Positions 6,277 through 29,904 are shown, counted from the stretch's first letter. The stretch: 33,859 nt of DNA from Deltaproteobacteria bacterium (GCA_019313725.1 JAFDAT010000004.1:1-33859), one strand, 5' to 3'. Made by a program: numbers and translations. The notes: a model not told the origin generated them from the sequence alone.

Positions 6277-6435
6277 CGCGAAAAAATAACTTCACATTTT
6301 CAGCGCCCATCCATCCCGCTCAGCAGCGTTGCAAAAACTCGAAATATGCTTGATATTCCTACATTTTCGCGCCTTGCTGAACGGCCTTGCTGAACGGGCG
6401 CCTGAACGCTGAAAATCTGCGAACTTATTTCTGCG
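6277..6435. repeat. ~160-bp imperfect palindromic element with an internal tandem 13-mer
   Basis: The left arm cgcgaaaaaataacttcacattttcagcg (6277-6305) matches the right arm cgctgaaaatctgcgaacttatttctgcg (6407-6435) as an imperfect reverse complement. ccttgctgaacgg is repeated in tandem at 6372-6384 and 6385-6397. Confidence 0.55.
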
Positions 6436-6470: not shown

Positions 6471-6512
6471 TTGATCTAAGTCAAGTTTAAAAACTTTGGG
6501 TTGTTATATACT
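6471..6512 (+). promoter_or_regulatory. CRP/FNR-type box plus -10 hexamer in class-II geometry upstream of napD
   Basis: TTGATctaaGTCAA (6471-6484) matches 9/10 of TTGAT-N4-ATCAA. Exactly 22 nt downstream lies TATACT (6507-6512). napD starts at 6592. Confidence 0.5.
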
Positions 6513-6591: not shown

Positions 6592-6822
6592 ATGCCGGTC
6601 TTTAGCTATTTAGCCTATCCGGAGCAGGGTGCAAAAGAGCAACTGCTCAAAGACCTGAGTGAATTGAGATATTGTGAAATTACACCCGCCCAAAATGAGG
6701 AATTGCTAATCCTCCTTACAGACACACCCGATGAAGATTCGGAAAAACAATTACAGAAAAAATTAAAAGCGTTAGATTCATTGCAGTCACTGGGCATGGC
6801 GTTCGGGCATATGGATGATTAG
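6592..6822 (+). CDS. napD: NapD-like Tat-proofreading chaperone for NapA
   Basis: 76-aa ORF with an AAGGAAG RBS, located immediately upstream of napA. Its size and beta-alpha-beta-like pattern ('VFSYLAY..', 'ELLILLTDTPDE') fit NapD. Confidence 0.65.
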   Translation: MPVFSYLAYPEQGAKEQLLKDLSELRYCEITPAQNEELLILLTDTPDEDSEKQLQKKLKALDSLQSLGMAFGHMDD

Positions 6823-6870
6823 CGCCATTTTTCCCTTGTAAGCTATCGGTTTTGAAAAAAGGAGCAGCAA

Positions 6871-9186
6871 ATGAAACTTGACAGACGATCGTTTATCAAA
6901 CTCATGGCCATGAACAGTGCCGCGACAGCCGCTGCGACGCTGTTCCCGGGCGTAAGCTTTGGCGCGTGGAGTACAACCGAGATGGCTTCGGGAGGTATTT
7001 TATGGAAGAAAACACCCTGTCGGTTTTGTGGTACGGGGTGCAGTCTTCTTGTTGGTGTTTCCGGTGACCGGGCCGTGGCAGTAAAAGGTGACCCCAACTG
7101 TACGGTCAATAAGGGACTGTGTTGTGTTAAAGGCTATCACTCCATCCAGATTCTCTACGGCAAGGATCGGATTCAGAAGGCACTGGTTCGCAAAAATGGG
7201 AAAATGGTGGAAGTCCCGGTGGCGGAGGCCCTTGATCTGGTAGCGAGAAAAATGCAGGAGACCATCCAGGTGCATGGGAAGGATGCCGTGGCCATGTATG
7301 GCTCAGGGCAATGGTCCATAACGGATGGGTATGTGGCTTCCAAATTGTTCAAGGGCTGCATCGGCACCAATAATGTTGAAGCAAATGCCCGTCTCTGTAT
7401 GGCCAGTGCCGTTACCGGGTGCATAACGACCTTCGGTCTGGACGAACCCATGGGGTGCTATGAAGATATCGAAAAGGCCGATGTCTTTGTCACCTGGGGT
7501 AATAATATGGCCGAAATGCACCCCGTTTTATTTTCCCGTATGCTGGCAACACGCAAAAATAGAACCCATGTTAAAATTATCGATTTCGCAACCCGTACCA
7601 CACGATCAAGCCTGGCGGCGGACCGATCGATCCTCTTTCGGCCCCAGACGGACCTGGCCGTTGCCAACGCCATCTGTTATGAGATCATTCGCAATGGGTG
7701 GGTGAATTGGGATTTTGTGAACAAGCACGTCTCTTTTCACAAGGGAAAAACCAACATCGGATATGGCACTGAAGATCACTTCAAATTTAAAGACAAGGCC
7801 GAGACCGTTGATTTCAATGCATTAAAATTGTTTTTAAAAGATTACACGCCGGAAAATGTTGAGAAAATATCCGGTGTACCGGCCAAGGACATAAAATATT
7901 TGGCTGCGCTTTACGGTGATCCGGATAAAAAGGTAACCTCCTTCTGGACCATGGGAATGAACCAGCACACCCGCGGCACCTGGATCAACAACCTCGTCTA
8001 CAACATCCATTTGCTCACCGGGAAAATTTCCTCTCCAGGTAACAGCCCCTTCTCCCTGACCGGTCAACCCAGCGCGTGCGGTACTGTTCGTGAAGTCGGA
8101 ACGTTGACGCATAAACTTCCCCATGGTGTCGTTATGAATCCCGACCACCGTAAAATGGCGGCCAGGATATGGGATGTACCTGTGGAAAATATTGACCCCA
8201 AGCCCACTTATCACACCGTCGAGATGTTCAGAGCTCTCGACAGGGGGGACATTCGCTTTATGTGGATTCAGGTCACCAATCCCATGGTGACCATGCCCAA
8301 TCTGCGGCGTTACCGGGACGGTGCCGAGAAAGAGGGCCGATTTGTTGTTGTTTCCGAGATATACCCCACACCCACATCCGATATCGCGGACGTAATTCTG
8401 CCCTCGGCTCTGTGGATCGAACGGGAAGGTTTTTTTGGGAATTCGGAAAGACGAACACAGCACAATGAGCAGATCGTACCCATGCCCGGGGAAACCGTGA
8501 GCAATACCTGGCAGATCATGGAGGTGGCCAGGAAAATGGGCTTCGAAAAGCAGTTCCCCTGGAGCGAAGAGACTTATATCGAAGACATATGGAACGAGTA
8601 TATCCAGTTCCACGATTCCCCAAAGCATCGCATGGCCCCCTTTAAAGTCCTCAAGGAAAGATCCGGCGTTCAGTGGCCGTATGTCAATGGCATGGAAACC
8701 AAATGGCGGTACAACGCCAAGTATGATCCAGCCTGCAAACAGAAAGATTTCGATTTCTACGGCAAAAAGGATCACCGCGCCTGGATATGGCTGCGGCCTT
8801 ATGAACCGCCCGCAGAGTCCCCGGACAGCGAATACCCCTTCTGGCTCAATACCGGTCGGGTCCTGGAGCACTGGCACACCGGATCCATGACGCGCCGGGT
8901 ACCGATCCTGCATAAAGCCATGCCGGAATCATATGTGGAAATCAATCCGGACGATGCTGCCAGGATGGGTATTACAAACGGCAGCGATGTTAAAATCAGT
9001 TCCCGAAGAGGCTCATTGGTGATGAAGGCAATGATCAACGGTCGGGGGAATCCGCCGAGAGGTATGGTCTTTGTTCCATTTTTTGATGAAAAGTATTTGA
9101 TAAACGAGGTGACCCTGGATGCTTTCTGTCCCATATCCAAACAACCAGATTACAAAAAATGCGCCGTAAAACTGGAGAGGGCCTAA
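6871..9186 (+). CDS. napA: periplasmic nitrate reductase catalytic subunit (Mo-bisMGD, Tat-exported)
   Basis: 771 aa. It has a Tat signal 'DRRSFIKLMAMNSAATAAA', an N-terminal 4Fe-4S motif 'CRFCGTGC...C' and an 'ARLCMASAVTG' segment resembling the Cys Mo-ligand region of NapA. napD and napB flank it. Confidence 0.85.
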   Translation: MKLDRRSFIKLMAMNSAATAAATLFPGVSFGAWSTTEMASGGILWKKTPCRFCGTGCSLLVGVSGDRAVAVKGDPNCTVNKGLCCVKGYHSIQILYGKDRIQKALVRKNGKMVEVPVAEALDLVARKMQETIQVHGKDAVAMYGSGQWSITDGYVASKLFKGCIGTNNVEANARLCMASAVTGCITTFGLDEPMGCYEDIEKADVFVTWGNNMAEMHPVLFSRMLATRKNRTHVKIIDFATRTTRSSLAADRSILFRPQTDLAVANAICYEIIRNGWVNWDFVNKHVSFHKGKTNIGYGTEDHFKFKDKAETVDFNALKLFLKDYTPENVEKISGVPAKDIKYLAALYGDPDKKVTSFWTMGMNQHTRGTWINNLVYNIHLLTGKISSPGNSPFSLTGQPSACGTVREVGTLTHKLPHGVVMNPDHRKMAARIWDVPVENIDPKPTYHTVEMFRALDRGDIRFMWIQVTNPMVTMPNLRRYRDGAEKEGRFVVVSEIYPTPTSDIADVILPSALWIEREGFFGNSERRTQHNEQIVPMPGETVSNTWQIMEVARKMGFEKQFPWSEETYIEDIWNEYIQFHDSPKHRMAPFKVLKERSGVQWPYVNGMETKWRYNAKYDPACKQKDFDFYGKKDHRAWIWLRPYEPPAESPDSEYPFWLNTGRVLEHWHTGSMTRRVPILHKAMPESYVEINPDDAARMGITNGSDVKISSRRGSLVMKAMINGRGNPPRGMVFVPFFDEKYLINEVTLDAFCPISKQPDYKKCAVKLERA

Positions 9187-9854
9187 TGGAAACGTCAAAT
9201 CGAAAACTGGGCAAGGTTTTTCTCGCCTTTGCTGGAATCTGTGTCCTGGCACTGCCAGCGATTGTGTTTTGGGCGCTATCATACGGGCCGGACGAGATCG
9301 AGGCCGCAACGGTGGAAACCAGTCAGACAACATTCGATGAAAATAGTGCCACAATCTTTGTGTCTCACGATGCGTTAACCCGATCGTACCTGGAAGGAAC
9401 ATCCAGTCAGCGTACCCTCGAGGAATACTACTCCAGGCGGCAATATTCCGGATCCCCTCCCTGGATACCCCACAAGGTGGAAGATGAATCCCGCGAGAGG
9501 ATTGCCTGCCTGACCTGTCACGAAAAGGGCGGGTGGACGGAGACGTTGAAAAGGCATACGCCGGTGACACCGCACCCGGAGAACACCTACTGCAGGCAAT
9601 GCCATGTCAAAATGGAAACGGAAGATCTTTTTGTCGACATCAACTGGAAGAGTATCCTGCCACCGCGCCTGGGCCGGTCCCACCTGCCGGGCGGACCACC
9701 GCCGATTCCCCATGACCTTCAAATGCGTGGCGACTGTATCGCCTGTCATGTGGGTCCGGGAGCGGTTGCGGCCATTCGGGTAGACCATCCATCCCGTGGA
9801 AATTGCCGGCAATGCCACGTTCCGGATTCATTTACGGGATTGTTTCAAAGATAA
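9186..9854 (+). CDS. napB: tandem-duplicated NapB-like tetrahaem cytochrome c with an N-terminal hydrophobic anchor or signal
   Basis: I prefer the ATG at 9186, which overlaps the napA stop as TAATG, over the ORF-track start at 9159. There are two complete NapB units: 'PPWIPH..CLTCH..TPHPE..YCRQCHV' and 'PPPIPH..CIACH..VDHP..NCRQCHVP'. That gives four CxxCH motifs. Confidence 0.7.
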   Translation: METSNRKLGKVFLAFAGICVLALPAIVFWALSYGPDEIEAATVETSQTTFDENSATIFVSHDALTRSYLEGTSSQRTLEEYYSRRQYSGSPPWIPHKVEDESRERIACLTCHEKGGWTETLKRHTPVTPHPENTYCRQCHVKMETEDLFVDINWKSILPPRLGRSHLPGGPPPIPHDLQMRGDCIACHVGPGAVAAIRVDHPSRGNCRQCHVPDSFTGLFQR

Positions 9855-9879
9855 CAAATACGCTACCATCAAGGATGTT

Positions 9880-10500
9880 ATGAAAACACCCAAACAAAAG
9901 AAATATGGCTTGGCGACCGTGCTTGGGCTGATGATCATCCTGACCGGATGGAATGCCTTCTCGGAAAAAGGCGGTGTCGTCCAGACCATTAAAAATGCAA
10001 CCTCTACCTTTGATAACGGATCTGTGGAATCAGTACCACCGGTCCCTGAAGATACCGTTCTCGCCCAGGTGAGGTACCAGGGAGGGACCTTCCGTGTCGA
10101 AACCCGCAAGGATAAGGTCAAGCGCTTCCAATGCAGCCAATGCCACAACAACCAGCCGGTGGCTATCGCCAATGCAGTGGAAACAGCCCATGGAGACATC
10201 ACTCTCAACCATGGGGACAAGGTCAAACAGCTGGCCTGTTTTACGTGTCACGACAAGGACAACCGGGATGTTCTGATTACTGAAAAAGGTACAAAAGTGG
10301 ACATGGATCACAGTTACCAGTTGTGCGGGCAGTGCCATTTCAGACAGAAAAAGGATTGGATCGGCGGCGCCCACGGGAAGCGCGTCTCCTGGTGGGCAGG
10401 CGAGCGGGTCGTAAAAAACTGTGCTTCATGCCATGATCCGCATGCACCGCGTTTTGAAAAGCGATGGCCGAAAACCTACTCACGTCCTTTCACCGAATAG
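9880..10500 (+). CDS. membrane-anchored tetrahaem c-type cytochrome
   Basis: I prefer the ATG at 9880, preceded by AAGGA at 9871-9875. It has an N-terminal TM segment 'YGLATVLGLMIILTGW' and four CxxCH motifs (CSQCH, CFTCH, CGQCH, CASCH). Confidence 0.75.
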   Translation: MKTPKQKKYGLATVLGLMIILTGWNAFSEKGGVVQTIKNATSTFDNGSVESVPPVPEDTVLAQVRYQGGTFRVETRKDKVKRFQCSQCHNNQPVAIANAVETAHGDITLNHGDKVKQLACFTCHDKDNRDVLITEKGTKVDMDHSYQLCGQCHFRQKKDWIGGAHGKRVSWWAGERVVKNCASCHDPHAPRFEKRWPKTYSRPFTE

Positions 10501-10508
10501 GAAAAAAT

Positions 10509-11483
10509 ATGGGTTTTTTGAAAAATAAAAGCGGCAGGCAACAGATCACAGACGAGCATCGACCGTGTCAGGATTCAGGCCGGCGGGAATTTCTAAAAAA
10601 AGCCGTGAAAGCCGCTGCAATTGGTGGTACCGCCGTGGTTACCGGTTGCCAGGCACCGGGGCTGCTCGGCTCTAAAGAAGAATTTGCCTTACAGTTTCAG
10701 GAGTATTTTAAAGCGCATTACCGCCTTATGACCGAAAAAGAAAGAGATACTACCATTACACGTCTGGAAAGACTGGCCAAACTTCAAAAGAACGTAGATG
10801 TCCAGATAAGCTCAAAGGAAGCAATGCCAGGCGTTCTTTTTGGCTATGGCTTCAACGTTACCCGGTGTGAAGGGTATATGGAATGCGTGTCCGCCTGTGT
10901 CAGGGAAAACAACCTGGACAGAAAAAGTAATATGCAATATATCCGCATATTCGAGATGGAGCCCGGTCAGATGACACCTGATGCGGGCCAGGGTAAGTTC
11001 TTTAATGAAGTGCCGGTGGACGGCCGTTTTTATATGGGGGCGCAATGTAACCATTGTGACAATGCACCTTGCATAAAGGCTTGTCCCACTAAAGCCACGT
11101 ATAGAGAGCCCGATGGAATTGTCGTGGTTGACTATGACTGGTGCATCGGGTGCCGGTACTGTATGGCCGCGTGTCCTTATTACGGCCGCCGGTTCAACTG
11201 GAACGAACCGGTGGTGCCGGTAAAAGAAATAACAAAAAAGCAGCATTATTTGGGCAACAGGCAGCGGCGGCGGGGGCAGATGGAAAAATGCACGTTCTGT
11301 GTGCAGAGGACCCGCGAGGGCCGGCTACCGGCCTGTGCTGAAGCGTGCCCTACCGGGGCAAGAATTTTCGGGAACCTGCTGGACCCCAAAAGCGAGATCC
11401 GGTTTGTCCTGGAAAACAAAAAAGTTTTCCGCTGGAAAGAAGAATTAGGAACAGATCCAAAATTTTGGTATTTTATTGACTAA
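10509..11483 (+). CDS. Tat-exported four-cluster FeS protein (NrfC/PsrB/HybA/QrcC-like)
   Basis: I prefer the ATG at 10509, with AGGA just upstream. The Tat motif is 'GRREFLKKA'. Cys groups are 'CEGYMECVSAC', 'CNHCDNAPCIKACP', 'CIGCRYCMAACP' and 'CTFC..CAEACP'. Confidence 0.8.
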   Translation: MGFLKNKSGRQQITDEHRPCQDSGRREFLKKAVKAAAIGGTAVVTGCQAPGLLGSKEEFALQFQEYFKAHYRLMTEKERDTTITRLERLAKLQKNVDVQISSKEAMPGVLFGYGFNVTRCEGYMECVSACVRENNLDRKSNMQYIRIFEMEPGQMTPDAGQGKFFNEVPVDGRFYMGAQCNHCDNAPCIKACPTKATYREPDGIVVVDYDWCIGCRYCMAACPYYGRRFNWNEPVVPVKEITKKQHYLGNRQRRRGQMEKCTFCVQRTREGRLPACAEACPTGARIFGNLLDPKSEIRFVLENKKVFRWKEELGTDPKFWYFID

Positions 11484-11498
11484 AAGTAAGGAAATACA

Positions 11499-12728
11499 AT
11501 GACTCAGAAATCTTCCGTAAGGCAGATGATCGGCTTTATTACTGATGTCACCAGGTGGAGTTTATCCGGCGGAATTGGTTACCAGCTGTTTTTATGTTTA
11601 CTGGTTGTCTTCATGATGCTTGGTGTATTTGCCTATCTGGTTCAATGGAAGCTGGGCCTGGCTGTAACCCATATGTCCGATATCGTCAGCTGGGGTTTTT
11701 ACATCGCCAACTTTACCTTTCTGGTGGGTGTTGCGGCCGCAGCAGTCATGTTGATCCTGCCTTCCTATATTTTCAAGGATAAGGATTTTCACCATGTCGT
11801 TATTATTGGTGAAGTCGTCGCCATCGGCGCATTGGTTATGAGCATGACGTTTGTGTTTGTGGATCTGGGCCGTCCCCTGCAGGGATGGCACATCATTCCC
11901 ATCATCGGTCTTTTTAACTGGCCATCTTCGCTGCTCACCTGGGACATACTTGTGCTTAACGTCTATCTGGTTTTGAACCTGTCGATTCCGGCATATATTT
12001 TATATTGTCATTACAACCAGGTAGAACCAGATCCCAGAAAATATCGCCCCTTTGTATTTATTTCTATATTCTGGGCATTCGGCATCCATCTGATCACGGC
12101 CTTTTTGTATGAAGGTTTGCCGGCCAGACCTTTCTGGAACAATCCCTTGATGGGGCCAAGGTTTCTGGCATCTGCTTTTGCCGCCGGGCCGGCCCTGATA
12201 ACCGTATTACTGGTTATCATTCATAACACCACGGTTTTCAAGATCCCAAAACAGACTTTTAATAAATTGAGACTGATCATCGTCATTTCAGCCATCATCA
12301 ACCTGATCATGCTCTTTTCGGAAGTGTTCAAGGAGTTTTATTTCCCCACTCACCATAGCCTGTCCGCCGAATACCTCTATTTCGGCCTGGATGGCCATAA
12401 TTCACTGGTTCCCTGGATCTGGACAGCTATCAGTATCAACATCATCGGCACACTGCTCCTGGCTTTCAACCCGGGCAAGAACAAACCCATGCTTCTGCTA
12501 CCTGCCTGCATACTGCTTTTTGTTGGCATCTGGATAGAAAAAGGGATCGGATTGATCGTCCCGGGTCTGGTACCCTCGCCCTTGGGTGAAGTGGTTTCCT
12601 ATGCGCCAAGCTGGGTGGAAATCAGTATTGCGCTTGGTATTCTGGCCCTGGGCATGTTCGTCGTGACCATGCTGCTGAAACCGGCTTTAATCATCGAACA
12701 CCGATTTAAAGCGGAAAAGCCCTCCTAA
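11499..12728 (+). CDS. NrfD/PsrC-family integral membrane quinone-interacting subunit
   Basis: 409 aa and highly hydrophobic, with about 10 predicted TM segments by eye. It sits directly after the FeS subunit, as in Psr/Nrf/Hmc/Qrc modules. AAGGA RBS. Confidence 0.75.
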   Translation: MTQKSSVRQMIGFITDVTRWSLSGGIGYQLFLCLLVVFMMLGVFAYLVQWKLGLAVTHMSDIVSWGFYIANFTFLVGVAAAAVMLILPSYIFKDKDFHHVVIIGEVVAIGALVMSMTFVFVDLGRPLQGWHIIPIIGLFNWPSSLLTWDILVLNVYLVLNLSIPAYILYCHYNQVEPDPRKYRPFVFISIFWAFGIHLITAFLYEGLPARPFWNNPLMGPRFLASAFAAGPALITVLLVIIHNTTVFKIPKQTFNKLRLIIVISAIINLIMLFSEVFKEFYFPTHHSLSAEYLYFGLDGHNSLVPWIWTAISINIIGTLLLAFNPGKNKPMLLLPACILLFVGIWIEKGIGLIVPGLVPSPLGEVVSYAPSWVEISIALGILALGMFVVTMLLKPALIIEHRFKAEKPS

Positions 12729-12864: not shown

Positions 12865-15864
12865 ATGCCCATATTGAAAAACCTGATTTTCCTGATCATG
12901 ATGGTGACCCCCGCTTTGGGCTGGGGAACTGAACTCTTCTATGTACTTGACGTCAGCATCGACACCACCATGAAGCGCTTGAGCGGAACCGCCCATTTGT
13001 CGAGCGGGCATGCCCGGGAAGTGCGACTGGCAATCAACAACCTAAGCAACATCACCGTCGATGGAAAGCAGGTACCCGACACATCCAATGGCATGATCAC
13101 CGTGGGGGTCGGTAACGGCAGATCCACCGTTGTGCGCTACGACGCCGTCTTCGACGGATCACCGGCCGGCCAATCCATCGGCCAACCAATCGGCCAACCA
13201 ATCGGAATGATCGATGCGACTCACGTTTTTCTCATGGCCGGTTGGTTTCCGGTGCCGGAAGGGCTGGCCCGGTACACACTTTCGGTGACCCTGCCCCGGA
13301 AGTTCAAAGCCGTATCCGAGGCCGAAAACGTTTCCGTGGCCTATGCCGAAACGCAGGCCACCCATCTGTTCCAGTTCGAGCATCCCCTGGACGGTCTGCA
13401 CCTGGCGGCATCAACAAATTTTGAAGTCCGGCAGGACAAATATAACGATATTGTCATCGAATCCTATTTTTTCAAAGAAGACGCCGCCCTCGCCGACACT
13501 TACATCGCGCATACCAAAAAATATCTGGAACTTTACGAGTCCATCCTGACCCCCTACCCCTACAAACGTTTTGCCATCGTGGAAAATATCCTGCCCACCG
13601 GCTACTCCATGCCCACCTTCACCCTTTTGGGACATGCGGTGGTCAAACTGCCCTTTATCGTAAAAACATCCCTGGCCCATGAAATCCTGCACCAGTGGTT
13701 TGGCAATTATGTCTACATCGATCATGTCCACGGTAATTGGGCCGAGGGGCTGACCACCTACCTGTCCGATTACCTGCTCGAAGAAAAGCAGGGTCGCGGC
13801 AGGGCTTACCGCAAACAGGTCATGGTGGATTTCGAGGCCTATGTCAATGCCGGCAATGCCGTACCGGTGAGCCATTTTCAGTACCGCAGCAGCAAGGCAC
13901 TGAGCACTATCGGCTATGGCAGGACCGCCATGTTTTTCCACGGGCTGAGAAAGCGTTTCGGAGATGAAACCTTTTTCAACGCCATGGTCGATTTCATCCA
14001 TGACAACCGGCTGCAGACAGCCTCATGGCACGACATTCAACAATCATTCGAAAATAATTCCGGGGACAAACTCGATGACTATTTCGACACCTGGCTCAAC
14101 CGCGCGGACATCCCCCGCCTGACTGTCGCCGAGGGCATGCTCGAAGTTCAGGATGGAATCCCCGTACTCAAATTCACCCTGCAGCAACGGGAGGAACCCT
14201 TCCCGCTCGACATTCCCATTCAGGTGCATACCGAAAGCTGCATCAAAACCCTATCGGTCCGCATGGATAGTCAAGAGCAGGCATTCACGCTTGAACTGGA
14301 CAGCCTGCCCACAAAAGTCATCCTGGACGAGAATTACGACCTGATGCGGCACCTGGTCCAGGCAGAAAAGCCACCTGTGCTGGCCGGCATCATGGGCCTG
14401 GAAAAATTGACTGTTGTCGTTGAAAAAAAACTGCAGCCCATCTATGGTCCCCTGATCAAGGCATTGGGTGTCCGGAAAATCGACATGGCTACACCGGGTG
14501 ACATCCGCTTTTCAGCACTCAAAGAAAATTCACTTGTCATCTGCGGTTACGACAATCCGGTGGCCAAGACCCTGCTTGGCGGGCCGATACCCCCGGGCAC
14601 CGGCCTGGGCCTCAAGGTCTTCAAACACCCCTACAGCGAGGATGGTCTGATATTGCTGATCCATGCCAGGGATATGCAGGAAACCCTTGCCGTTCAACGC
14701 AAACTGCGCCACTACGGCAAATACAGCGAGCTGACCTTCGATCAAGGCAGAATAATCACTAAAAAAAGAGTTGAAACGGGTAACGGCATGCGCATACTTG
14801 AATATCCGGCACCCCTTGCGCTCCGGCCCGGCCACGATCCGACCTTGGGGCAGACCATGGACGTACTCTTAAAAAGCCGTGTGATTTTCGTGGGGGAAAA
14901 ACACGACCGCTACGCCCACCACATGCACCAGCTCGAAATCATCCGGCACCTGTTTGCTTCTGGGGCGGAAGTGGCCGTGGGCATGGAGATGTTTCACCAG
15001 CCCTATCAGGTTGCCGTGGATGATTACCTGGCCGGCAGAATCGATGAACGTGAGTTTCTTAAACAATCCCGTTACTATGAAGAGTGGCGCTATGATTACG
15101 GCCTTTACAAACCCATCGTTGATTTTCTAAAAACCAACGACATCCCGCTGGTGGCCCTGAACATACCGGGGGACATCAGCAAGCAGGTCGCCAGAAAAGG
15201 GTTGGAAAGTTTGAGTGATGCTCAGAAAGCCCGGCTGCCCGCTGAACTCGATTTTTCAAACGAAGCATATCAAAATGACCTGAAGGATGTGTTTTCCCTG
15301 CACGGCGATAAGACCGGCATCAATGAATTCAACTTTTTTCTCCAGGCCCAGGTGCTGTGGGATGAAAGCATGGCCGACCGGGCCTTTCGCTTTCTCGAAA
15401 ACAATCCCGGACGTAAACTGGTCATCCTGGCCGGCAACGGGCACATCCGACACGGGTACGGTGTTCCCCAACGGCTTTTCCGGCGGTCCGGGGAGCCTTA
15501 CACCGTTATCGTTCAGGATGAAGCCCTGGAAGAAGACATTGCCGACTATGTGCTCCTAACCACCGAGATCAAAGGAAACCCCGCACCCAAACTCGGGGTC
15601 ATGGTCGAAGAAAAGGACAGTGCGCTGACCATTGCCGGCATCAGTAAAAACGGACCTGCTGAAAAAGCAGGGCTAAATCAAGGCGACATTATCCAGGCAT
15701 TTGACGGACAGACGATTGCAGCCCTGGCCGACCTGAAAATCGCCCTCTATTTCTGCCGGAAGGACCAGACCACAACCATCCGAATCCTCAGGGATGACCA
15801 GACGCTGGACAAGGACATTACCCTGTTCGAATTCAATTCCTTCAGCATGCATGGAAAAAAGTAA
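12865..15864 (+). CDS. secreted multidomain protein: M1-like gluzincin domain + ChaN/Tiki-superfamily domain + C-terminal PDZ
   Basis: 999 aa with signal peptide 'LIFLIMMVTPALGWG'. The gluzincin motif is 'HEILHQWFGN...WAEGLTTY' (HExxH plus a distal Glu). The ChaN/Tiki-like part reads 'VIFVGEKHDRYAHH..VGMEMF..LAGNGHIRHGYGVP'. The PDZ domain reads 'ISKNGPAEKAGLNQGDIIQAFDGQ'. Confidence 0.65.
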   Translation: MPILKNLIFLIMMVTPALGWGTELFYVLDVSIDTTMKRLSGTAHLSSGHAREVRLAINNLSNITVDGKQVPDTSNGMITVGVGNGRSTVVRYDAVFDGSPAGQSIGQPIGQPIGMIDATHVFLMAGWFPVPEGLARYTLSVTLPRKFKAVSEAENVSVAYAETQATHLFQFEHPLDGLHLAASTNFEVRQDKYNDIVIESYFFKEDAALADTYIAHTKKYLELYESILTPYPYKRFAIVENILPTGYSMPTFTLLGHAVVKLPFIVKTSLAHEILHQWFGNYVYIDHVHGNWAEGLTTYLSDYLLEEKQGRGRAYRKQVMVDFEAYVNAGNAVPVSHFQYRSSKALSTIGYGRTAMFFHGLRKRFGDETFFNAMVDFIHDNRLQTASWHDIQQSFENNSGDKLDDYFDTWLNRADIPRLTVAEGMLEVQDGIPVLKFTLQQREEPFPLDIPIQVHTESCIKTLSVRMDSQEQAFTLELDSLPTKVILDENYDLMRHLVQAEKPPVLAGIMGLEKLTVVVEKKLQPIYGPLIKALGVRKIDMATPGDIRFSALKENSLVICGYDNPVAKTLLGGPIPPGTGLGLKVFKHPYSEDGLILLIHARDMQETLAVQRKLRHYGKYSELTFDQGRIITKKRVETGNGMRILEYPAPLALRPGHDPTLGQTMDVLLKSRVIFVGEKHDRYAHHMHQLEIIRHLFASGAEVAVGMEMFHQPYQVAVDDYLAGRIDEREFLKQSRYYEEWRYDYGLYKPIVDFLKTNDIPLVALNIPGDISKQVARKGLESLSDAQKARLPAELDFSNEAYQNDLKDVFSLHGDKTGINEFNFFLQAQVLWDESMADRAFRFLENNPGRKLVILAGNGHIRHGYGVPQRLFRRSGEPYTVIVQDEALEEDIADYVLLTTEIKGNPAPKLGVMVEEKDSALTIAGISKNGPAEKAGLNQGDIIQAFDGQTIAALADLKIALYFCRKDQTTTIRILRDDQTLDKDITLFEFNSFSMHGKK
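13168..13203 (+). repeat. in-frame 12-bp x3 tandem repeat inside the 999-aa gene
   Basis: The three units are ggccaatccatc, ggccaaccaatc and ggccaaccaatc. They encode GQSI-GQPI-GQPI. Confidence 0.9.
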
Positions 15865-29862: not shown

Positions 29863-29904
29863 AGGTTACCTTGGCATTCGAGCCTTTGCATTGACCTAAG
29901 TCAA
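29863..29904 (-). promoter_or_regulatory. second CRP/FNR-type box plus -10 in class-II geometry
   Basis: The perfect palindrome TTGACctaaGTCAA sits at 29891-29904. On the minus strand it is followed after exactly 22 nt by TAACCT (29868-29863). This is upstream of the small ORF and nadA. Confidence 0.45.

Follow-up and report, generated by a model that had tools for sequence, protein, structure and literature searches.

A cluster of six genes in the order napD-napA-cytX-cytY-FeS-NrfD, all on the plus strand, was found by open reading frame (ORF) analysis at positions 6592–12728 of a 33,859-nucleotide stretch of DNA (GCA_019313725.1, JAFDAT010000004.1:1-33859; the whole stretch is hereafter called the window). 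Its host is a sulfate reducer from a cold seep, represented by a metagenome-assembled genome (MAG) that is 82% complete. The first two genes belong to a periplasmic nitrate reductase (Nap) system, and the remaining four encode two tetrahaem cytochromes c, designated here cytX and cytY, an iron-sulfur (FeS) protein with a signal for twin-arginine translocation (Tat) and a membrane protein of the NrfD family (Table 1). Genes for NapC or NapGH, the textbook quinol partners of Nap, were absent from the window.

Table 1. The six clustered genes and their probable promoter, with positions in the window (aa, amino acids; TM, transmembrane)
Feature	Position	Strand	Description
CRP/FNR-family box and -10-like hexamer	6471..6512	+	probable operon promoter, ~80 nt upstream of napD
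napD	6592..6822	+	76 aa; NapA maturation / Tat-proofreading chaperone
napA	6871..9186	+	771 aa; catalytic molybdopterin subunit, Tat signal
cytX (earlier 'napB')	9186..9854	+	222 aa; anchored tetrahaem cytochrome c, two NapB units in tandem
cytY	9880..10500	+	206 aa; tetrahaem cytochrome c, N-terminal hydrophobic anchor or signal
FeS protein	10509..11483	+	324 aa; Tat-exported four-cluster ferredoxin of the NrfC/PsrB type, DsrO paralogue
NrfD-family protein	11499..12728	+	409 aa; ~10 TM helices, DsrP paralogue

The six genes probably constitute one operon, judging from their spacing and from the signals around them. The successive genes are separated by 48 nt, a 1-nt overlap and gaps of 25, 8 and 15 nt, the last three matching the 8–25 nt at which an earlier reading made from the sequence alone (the sequence-only reading) had placed the cytochrome, FeS and NrfD genes behind nap. 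Terminator-like sites inside the cluster were no commoner in a consensus scan than in shuffled sequence, and no terminator-like gap dividing it was seen. The start of cytX at ATG 9186 overlaps the napA stop codon as TAATG and is preceded by a ribosome-binding site (GGAGAGGG); the same Met, which is Met10 of a longer ORF with an alternative start at 9159 (231 aa), was invariant in relatives. The FeS gene probably starts at 10509, eight bases past the cytY stop, with an alternative start possible at 10464. NapA was the only terminal reductase encoded in operons of this type. A gap of 136 nt separates the NrfD gene from a gene for a 999-aa fusion of M1-peptidase-like, ChaN/Tiki haem-binding-like and PDZ domains (12865–15864), which is probably outside the operon, since its position was kept only here and in the closest relative (locus L018).

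Transcription probably starts from a CRP/FNR-type promoter. The palindrome TTGATctaaGTCAA at 6471–6484 is followed 22 nt downstream by a -10-like hexamer TATACT, and of the 53 related loci, 40 had a box of the TTGAC-N4-GTCAA type in the 400 nt upstream of napD, as against none of 159 control windows placed inside napA. The conserved box stands upstream of napD only, consistent with a single regulated unit starting at this gene, and it points to a regulator of the CRP/FNR family, which may plausibly be HcpR- or FNR-like. Two further elements were noticed in the window: an imperfect palindromic element between a HAD hydrolase gene and the nap box (6277–6435), in which the 13-mer ccttgctgaacgg occurs twice in tandem, and a putative second CRP/FNR-type box (TTGACctaaGTCAA, 29891–29904) 23 kb downstream of the nap box, through which another gene may share the regulon. 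Sampled sequence words were next to absent in three cold-seep metatranscriptomes of the same study.

The napA product is classed by its sequence as the catalytic subunit of a periplasmic nitrate reductase. It scored 971.6 bits against the NCBIfam equivalog model NF010055 (cut-off 904) and 928 against TIGR01706, slightly short of the cut-off of 930.55, and it carries the Pfam domains Molybdopterin, Molydop_binding and Molybdop_Fe4S4, the Tat motif DRRSFI and an N-terminal 4Fe-4S cysteine motif. Its score against the QrcB model was 81 bits (cut-off 440), and it was the only gene in the genome scoring as NapA. NapD remained under the Pfam cut-off of 28 with 24.2 bits (E = 3.8e-5); a NapD homologue with 51–76% identity occupied the same place in related loci. 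The substrate range of a NapA-like molybdoenzyme is unreadable from sequence, and the NapA model matched in two stretches a protein which, at 771 aa, is about 60 residues under the 830 positions of the model; the enzyme might thus reduce a different oxyanion, such as chlorate, selenate or perchlorate, and the operon might be a different respiratory system. This was considered very unlikely for an enzyme that clears a curated equivalog cut-off, whose gene is flanked by napD and by a gene for a NapB-type cytochrome, and which is 76–86% identical throughout the family of related loci.

The third gene had been called napB in the sequence-only reading, which was right as to kinship but not as to form. 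The first unit of cytX scored 28.5 bits on Pfam NapB (cut-off 25.1) and the first half aligned to the solved NapB structure 3ml1_B (E = 0.004), the PPxIPH motif included, while the second half repeats the pattern PPPIPH ... CxxCH ... HP ... CRQCH; when aligned to each other the halves scored 90.5, compared to 24.8 ± 4.6 for shuffled sequences (z = 14). One N-terminal TM helix precedes four CXXCH motifs, all of which were present in 60/60 relatives. On these features cytX is regarded as a derived, membrane-anchored NapB form with two NapB units and not as a canonical dihaem soluble NapB; as it has four CXXCH motifs instead of two, the locus encodes two anchored tetrahaem cytochromes. The NrfH model gave a partial match only (22.7 bits, cut-off 134). 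With 2983 proteins found at E ≤ 1e-10, cytX belongs to a large family, whose members are all about 222–240 aa long; several are named NapB by the Joint Genome Institute (JGI).

The second cytochrome, cytY, for which a public gene call of identical length (P0121, 206 aa) already exists, also had four CXXCH motifs in 60/60 relatives, with weak matches to Pfam Cytochrome_C7 and Paired_CXXCH. No relative was found among solved structures, and an AlphaFold2 model built from a 31-row alignment had a mean pLDDT (predicted local distance difference test score) of 43, too poor for a fold search; similar clusters in the Atlas were commonest in Bacteroidota. The protein was 29–39% identical (E = 1e-22 to 1e-25) to the cytochromes of the 'mid' cytY-FeS-NrfD modules described below, and gave no BLASTP match (E ≤ 0.01) to the DsrJ of its own genome or to an NrfH-like protein encoded in locus L038. 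It is proposed to be the cytochrome subunit of a quinol-oxidizing module.

The FeS protein, with a Tat motif GRREFL within residues 39–62 of the long ORF, scored 187.5 bits on the DsrO model NF045797 (cut-off 200), as against 138 on QrcC (cut-off 400) and 127.6 on NrfC (cut-off 377.6), and was 40% identical to the genome's own DsrO. Its 15 cluster cysteines were invariant in 60/60 sequences, while the second Cys of group I is replaced by Tyr in 30/60 and by Phe in the other 30/60; the 'mid' FeS proteins had a complete CxxCxxCxxxC group I, and the canonical DsrO sequences examined mostly had about 12 Cys. Because one site has three Cys, as in QrcC, ActB and NarH, a [3Fe-4S] cluster is suggested, the likely complement of the protein being three [4Fe-4S] clusters plus this one. 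Cys62 (long-ORF numbering) lies in a VTGC lipobox in 58/60 sequences, and since this conserved Cys follows the Tat signal, the pattern suggests a Tat-exported lipoprotein. Most of the 'mid' FeS proteins and canonical DsrO that were examined had no VTGC lipobox, and a lipoprotein would be unusual among NrfC/DsrO-type subunits.

The membrane subunit, which has about 10–11 hydrophobic segments and lacks motifs for haem or FeS clusters, scored 117.6 bits on Pfam NrfD (PF03916, cut-off 25.8) and 387.8 bits on the DsrP model NF045798 (cut-off 350), compared to 51 on QrcD (cut-off 570) and 19.8 on NrfD (cut-off 347.6); its best match among solved structures was ActC (6btm_C, E = 9e-9). The sequence-only reading had seen here a Qrc/Nrf-like quinol dehydrogenase. 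The link to quinol appears likely, but the presumed kinship with Qrc and alternative complex III (ACIII) was not borne out by the scores, with DsrP at 388 against 51 for QrcD and 20 for NrfD, and DsrO at 187 against 138 for QrcC and 128 for NrfC. Polar residues common to the nap-linked, 'mid' and Dsr clades (Y68, E105, D122, S144, D149, H197, R210, R221, E275, H286 and K348) tracked, by a constant offset of 16–21, the quinone-site and channel residues of Desulfovibrio vulgaris DsrP1, compared through published numbering and not by alignment (PMC8076601). These published residues include the unusual Lys (PMC8076601) to which K348 corresponds, a position where most NrfD families have Arg. The NrfD subunit family was proposed to conduct protons (PMC8076601), and the membrane subunit is proposed to be the menaquinol-binding subunit of the system.

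The FeS and membrane genes are best seen as paralogues of dsrO and dsrP, because canonical dsrMKJOP exists elsewhere in the same genome: contig C463 ends with dsrMKJO, and dsrP is located on contig C74, its product scoring 488 bits on the DsrP model and being only 41% identical to the nap-linked protein. That the two nap-linked genes are simply a second DsrOP of sulfur metabolism, standing beside nap by accident, would fit a membrane subunit above the DsrP equivalog cut-off, an FeS protein only slightly under that for DsrO, and the DsrP name of one relative in the public record (P0030). This was judged extremely improbable, as no dsrM, dsrK or dsrJ was present near the nap operon, the canonical dsrMKJOP set occurred separately both in this genome and in genomes with a 'mid' triad (G150, G244 and G272), and the nap-linked and canonical DsrP sequences formed distinct clades. 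The 15 cluster Cys of the FeS protein, against about 12 in most canonical DsrO, the missing BLASTP match between cytY and DsrJ, and the strict synteny of both genes with nap speak in the same direction. In locus L137 (6070–7665; genome G064, contig C11) another DsrP-like gene without dsrMKJO nearby was noticed, whose 531-aa extended frame shared, in the part that matched, 63% identity with canonical DsrP; its very long branch in the tree may reflect extra frame sequence.

The conservation of the gene order was followed in a scan with one genome per species, which yielded 417 loci with a relative of the membrane subunit; the best 80 were kept and mapped by tblastn. The six-gene order was present in essentially every kept locus with enough flanking sequence, and NapA, cytX, cytY, the FeS protein and the NrfD-type protein were encoded together in 59 fetched loci from Desulfobacterales and Desulfobulbales. 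Since the same order recurs in 59 loci from other genomes, the arrangement is far beyond chance. The best 80 loci belonged almost wholly to sulfate-reducer lineages of marine sediments, seeps and symbioses. Carriers of the operon included the isolates Desulfogranum mediterraneum DSM 13871, Desulfopila aestuarii DSM 18488 and Desulforhopalus sp. IMCC35007, as well as MAGs associated with foraminifera and an Olavius symbiont. Locus L019, an apparent counter-example without NapA, was rejected, as a run of N's (a scaffold gap) cuts its cytY. In this 'complete chromosome' MAG (CP070768) a 100-N gap lies inside cytY (L019:8560-8660) with unrelated sequence upstream of it, probably a misassembly that removed napDA-cytX.

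Among 400 sampled genomes of the phylum, relatives of the membrane subunit fell into three tiers. Those with at least 68% identity were nap-linked orthologues; at 43–49% identity, in the tier called 'mid' here, a triad of a cytY homologue, FeS protein and NrfD-type protein stood beside an HAO-like octahaem cytochrome, which was located downstream in loci L110 and L112 and upstream in L117–L119; and at about 41–46% identity canonical DsrP was found inside dsrMKJOP. In a maximum-likelihood tree of 80 sequences, obtained by a quick search and with long branches among the representatives that make the deeper clade order unreliable, all 27 nap-linked NrfD sequences formed one clade (27/27, SH-aLRT 100) apart from canonical DsrP, splitting into a Desulfobulbales branch and a Desulfobacterales branch.

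In three loci of family f65 (L117:187-10269, L118:1721-12191 and L119:5080-14547) a single string of genes encodes an HAO-like octahaem, a cytY-like tetrahaem, FeS and NrfD-type proteins, a NapM-like tetrahaem, NapA, NapD, and NapG-like and NapH-like proteins, so that a NapGH-containing nap system directly follows a triad of the same type. Their NapA was divergent (~800 aa, 40% identity, 662 bits), and in 2/3 of these loci a gene for 263–283 aa followed NrfD. Because homologous triads adjoin HAO-like octahaems and, in one family, a NapM-like/napADGH string, the cytY-FeS-NrfD triad has the appearance of a portable module that feeds electrons into periplasmic reductases.

The textbook partners were also missing from the rest of the genome. 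No match to PF03264 (NapC/NirT/NrfH) was obtained at E ≤ 0.001 in the whole 82%-complete MAG, and the best scores for NapH and NapG, on other contigs, were 102 bits (cut-off 213) and 81 bits (cut-off 179), respectively. NapH-like hits on contigs C279 and C261 were dismissed as generic Fer4_5 membrane FeS proteins encoded beside MetW/hemerythrin-domain and DUF362/nitroreductase genes. The nap locus without NapC and NapGH recognized in the sequence-only reading therefore stands, with none in the window and none above cut-off in the MAG. Together with the order in 59 loci, the single NrfD clade, the lack of a terminator-like split and the CRP/FNR-type box upstream of napD only, this supports the earlier view, in which the three genes downstream go together with nap.

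Five other genomes carrying the operon gave a similar picture, with NapH never reaching the cut-off. Their PF03264 genes were mostly of the NrfH type and located next to nrfA or an octahaem gene, and none was part of this type of nap operon; locus L101 had a lone pentahaem protein with a partial PF03264 match. Three of the five had this NapA only, two a second, napADGH-type cluster and two NarG. The isolate Desulfogranum mediterraneum DSM 13871 likewise has no NapA but one of this type. In Desulforhopalus (L099) an NrfH-like/octahaem pair stood beside the second, napADGH-type cluster. In locus L038 (2572–4631; MAG bin85, CP070652) the genes directly upstream of napD encode an NrfH-like tetrahaem and an HAO-like octahaem of 459 aa, and the pair and nap would make a compact nitrate-plus-nitrite reduction island, comparable to the NapAB-octahaem arrangement reportedly present in cable bacteria.

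No NrfA family match was found in the window's genome, which has several octahaem cytochromes, including one of the Otr family on contig C479. On contig C517 (297–4624; locus L140) a separate cluster encodes a 177-aa tetrahaem, an FeS protein, an NrfD-family protein and a 529-aa HAO-like octahaem. Given that neither NrfA nor NrfH gave a family match in the genome, the cluster becomes a candidate for a quinol-linked reductase of nitrite/hydroxylamine (or sulfite), which could take the nitrite produced by Nap.

From these data we consider it rather likely that the DsrOP-like module replaces NapC and NapGH and that electrons flow from menaquinol through the NrfD-type and FeS subunits to cytY, cytX and finally NapA. 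Menaquinol would be oxidized at the NrfD/DsrP-like membrane subunit and its electrons passed to the Tat-exported, possibly lipid-anchored FeS protein, which would hand them to the anchored tetrahaem cytY. The latter would in turn reduce the anchored tandem-NapB cytX, a lengthened NapB bridging to NapA, where the electrons would proceed through the [4Fe-4S] cluster to the molybdenum bis(molybdopterin guanine dinucleotide) (Mo-bisMGD) cofactor to reduce nitrate to nitrite, NapD serving in the maturation of NapA. Such a chain is favored because the synteny is conserved, the nap-linked NrfD proteins have a dedicated clade, the operon has no other terminal reductase, and the triad has been paired independently with other periplasmic reductases.

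Several points weigh against this chain. Sequence shows neither which way electrons move through a module of the NrfD type nor whether the proteins associate physically, and Qrc runs oppositely. Given the incompleteness of the MAG, NapC or NapGH might be encoded on unassembled DNA, and the NrfH proteins of other carriers might in principle cross-feed NapA. The operon was patchy in the window's own order (19/251 sampled genomes, 15/140 genera) and occurred in 0/5 other genomes of its own family. Nitrate reduction is documented for Desulfopila aestuarii (PMC8497536), but this carrier was rejected as physiological proof: because a second, napADGH cluster is present, its nitrate phenotype is not assignable to this operon.

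The most serious alternative is that two functional units share one transcript. NapA and cytX would then be fed from a periplasmic cytochrome c pool, i.e., by hydrogenase or formate dehydrogenase via c3-type cytochromes, or by an unlinked NrfH/NapC-like protein, while the triad would act separately, either reducing quinone in the manner of Qrc or serving as quinol dehydrogenase to another periplasmic reductase, e.g., an octahaem nitrite/hydroxylamine reductase. The pairing of homologous triads elsewhere with HAO-like octahaems and not with NapA, the presence of several octahaems in the window's genome, and the NrfH-like and octahaem genes directly upstream of napD in L038 are all in line with such a split, and Qrc reportedly shows that an NrfD-type complex can reduce quinone. 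However, the octahaem of L038 has its own NrfH-type quinol dehydrogenase, and the window's genome has a separate tetrahaem-FeS-NrfD-octahaem cluster on C517. An octahaem gene was found in 0/59 nap-type loci, in which the triad strictly adjoins cytX. Moreover, the nap-linked NrfD and FeS proteins have a clade and a three-Cys group I of their own, a signature that suggests co-adaptation with Nap. The two-unit arrangement was, consequently, regarded as unlikely, and the continuous chain from menaquinol to NapA is preferred.

The energetic side of this chain is more speculative. Nap systems that depend on NapC or NapGH are considered non-electrogenic. The potential drop from menaquinol to nitrate is large, roughly 0.5 V, and quinol oxidation with proton release to the periplasm would be electroneutral. 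Qrc, on the other hand, is reported to be electrogenic. It is possible, but for the present doubtful, that the DsrP-like subunit makes quinol-dependent Nap energy-conserving, either translocating protons or releasing them vectorially through its conserved half-channels, and that the module represents a third widespread class of Nap quinol dehydrogenase, with a triad exchangeable between NapA and HAO-type octahaems. The finding thereby raises the question of whether periplasmic nitrate reduction can conserve energy, given that the subunit family was proposed to move protons.

Compared to classical Nap, the system has in common a Tat-exported NapA, NapD, a NapB-type cytochrome c as the direct donor and the quinol-fed reduction of nitrate to nitrite in the periplasm. 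It differs in the absence of NapC/NirT, NapG and NapH, in an anchored tandem NapB with four haems, and in the tetrahaem, FeS and NrfD-type proteins that form the link to quinol. A 2026 review of Nap recognized four operon types only, namely the NapC-type napEDABC, the NapGH-types napDAGHB and napAGHBFLD, and napCMADGH of Desulfovibrio desulfuricans, none of which has this layout (PMC13223375). The cytY-FeS-NrfD triad would be analogous to NrfB-NrfC-NrfD, DsrJ-DsrO-DsrP and ActA-ActB-ActC. Escherichia coli NrfABCD follows the same logic, its periplasmic reductase being fed through a multihaem shuttle, a four-cluster FeS protein exported by Tat, and NrfD, a quinol-binding membrane subunit free of cofactors; the terminal enzyme here, however, is a molybdoenzyme, two anchored tetrahaems stand in place of one soluble pentahaem, and the FeS and membrane subunits are far under the NrfC and NrfD cut-offs. 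The nearest relatives in sequence are those of DsrJOP, and DsrP-type residues are kept, including the Lys at the gate position; nevertheless, the nap-linked proteins are paralogues of a separate clade without DsrM and DsrK, with a tetrahaem instead of the trihaem DsrJ, 15 instead of about 12 Cys and a Nap partner.

With Qrc and ACIII the system has in common a cytochrome c, a four-cluster FeS protein with one (here predicted) [3Fe-4S] cluster and a 10-TM NrfD-type subunit with a quinone site on the periplasmic side, but the relation in sequence is weak, and the FeS protein has no molybdopterin-like subunit fused to it or docked on it, NapA being separate, of the active type and provided with its own NapB-type partner. 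The idea put forward in the sequence-only reading, that an active NapA substitutes for the inactive molybdopterin subunit known from Qrc/ACIII, does not hold: NapA retains a NapB-type partner of its own, and the two anchored cytochromes put eight haems between it and the FeS protein. For this reason the layout resembles NrfA-NrfB-NrfCD more than a complex whose molybdopterin subunit docks on the FeS subunit.

Two sets of published loci are close to the one described here. DsrO/DsrP homologues with a tetrahaem cytochrome (dsrOhPh-tetrahaem) were described from cable bacteria, some Desulfobulbales, and Gamma- and Betaproteobacteria, in a clade that lies close to canonical DsrP without being part of it; electron transfer between quinone and periplasm was proposed by the authors, who left the function unassigned (BMC Genomics 2026, PMC13047784). 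These genes are likewise located away from dsrMKJ, but, compared by description only, they have a different order (TMH1-dsrOh-dsrPh-tetrahaem) and no reported link to Nap (PMC13047784). In Thermosulfurimonas dismutans and Dissulfuribacter thermophilus an 11-gene nap cluster lies near a four-gene locus for multihaem, NrfD, FeS and TM-cytochrome proteins (PMC5276818, Slobodkina et al., 2017), resembling the octahaem-cytY-FeS-NrfD-NapM-like-napADGH strings of L117–L119. In these two bacteria nap includes NapGH, and a role in nitrite or sulfur reduction was proposed for the four-gene locus (PMC5276818), whereas the type found in the window has neither NapGH nor an octahaem and has the tandem NapB between NapA and the module.

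Full-text literature searches found no description of a Nap system with an NrfCD-type quinol dehydrogenase, and a review of the NrfD family makes no mention of Nap (PMC8076601); the operon is thus widespread yet undescribed in the accessible literature. NapA was reported by Woehle et al. (2022) in foraminifera-associated Desulfobacteraceae MAGs as lacking NapB, the downstream genes not being analysed (PMC9231491), and one of these MAGs, Glo_11, corresponds to a locus of the present operon set (L068). Current pipelines name the products 'DsrP', 'polysulfide reductase NrfD', 'NapB' or 'hypothetical', and because the genes are misnamed in this way surveys report 'NapA without NapB or NapC' (e.g., PMC9231491).

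If true, a third input module of the DsrOP/NrfCD type would revise the textbook picture in which Nap is fed by NapC or NapGH. The finding also suggests a function for the loci of cable bacteria that combine DsrOP homologues with a tetrahaem cytochrome. Almost all of the best loci come from lineages of sulfate reducers, which are usually not counted as nitrate respirers, and, should the energy-conserving version prove true, the sulfate reducers of sediments would gain energy directly from nitrate.

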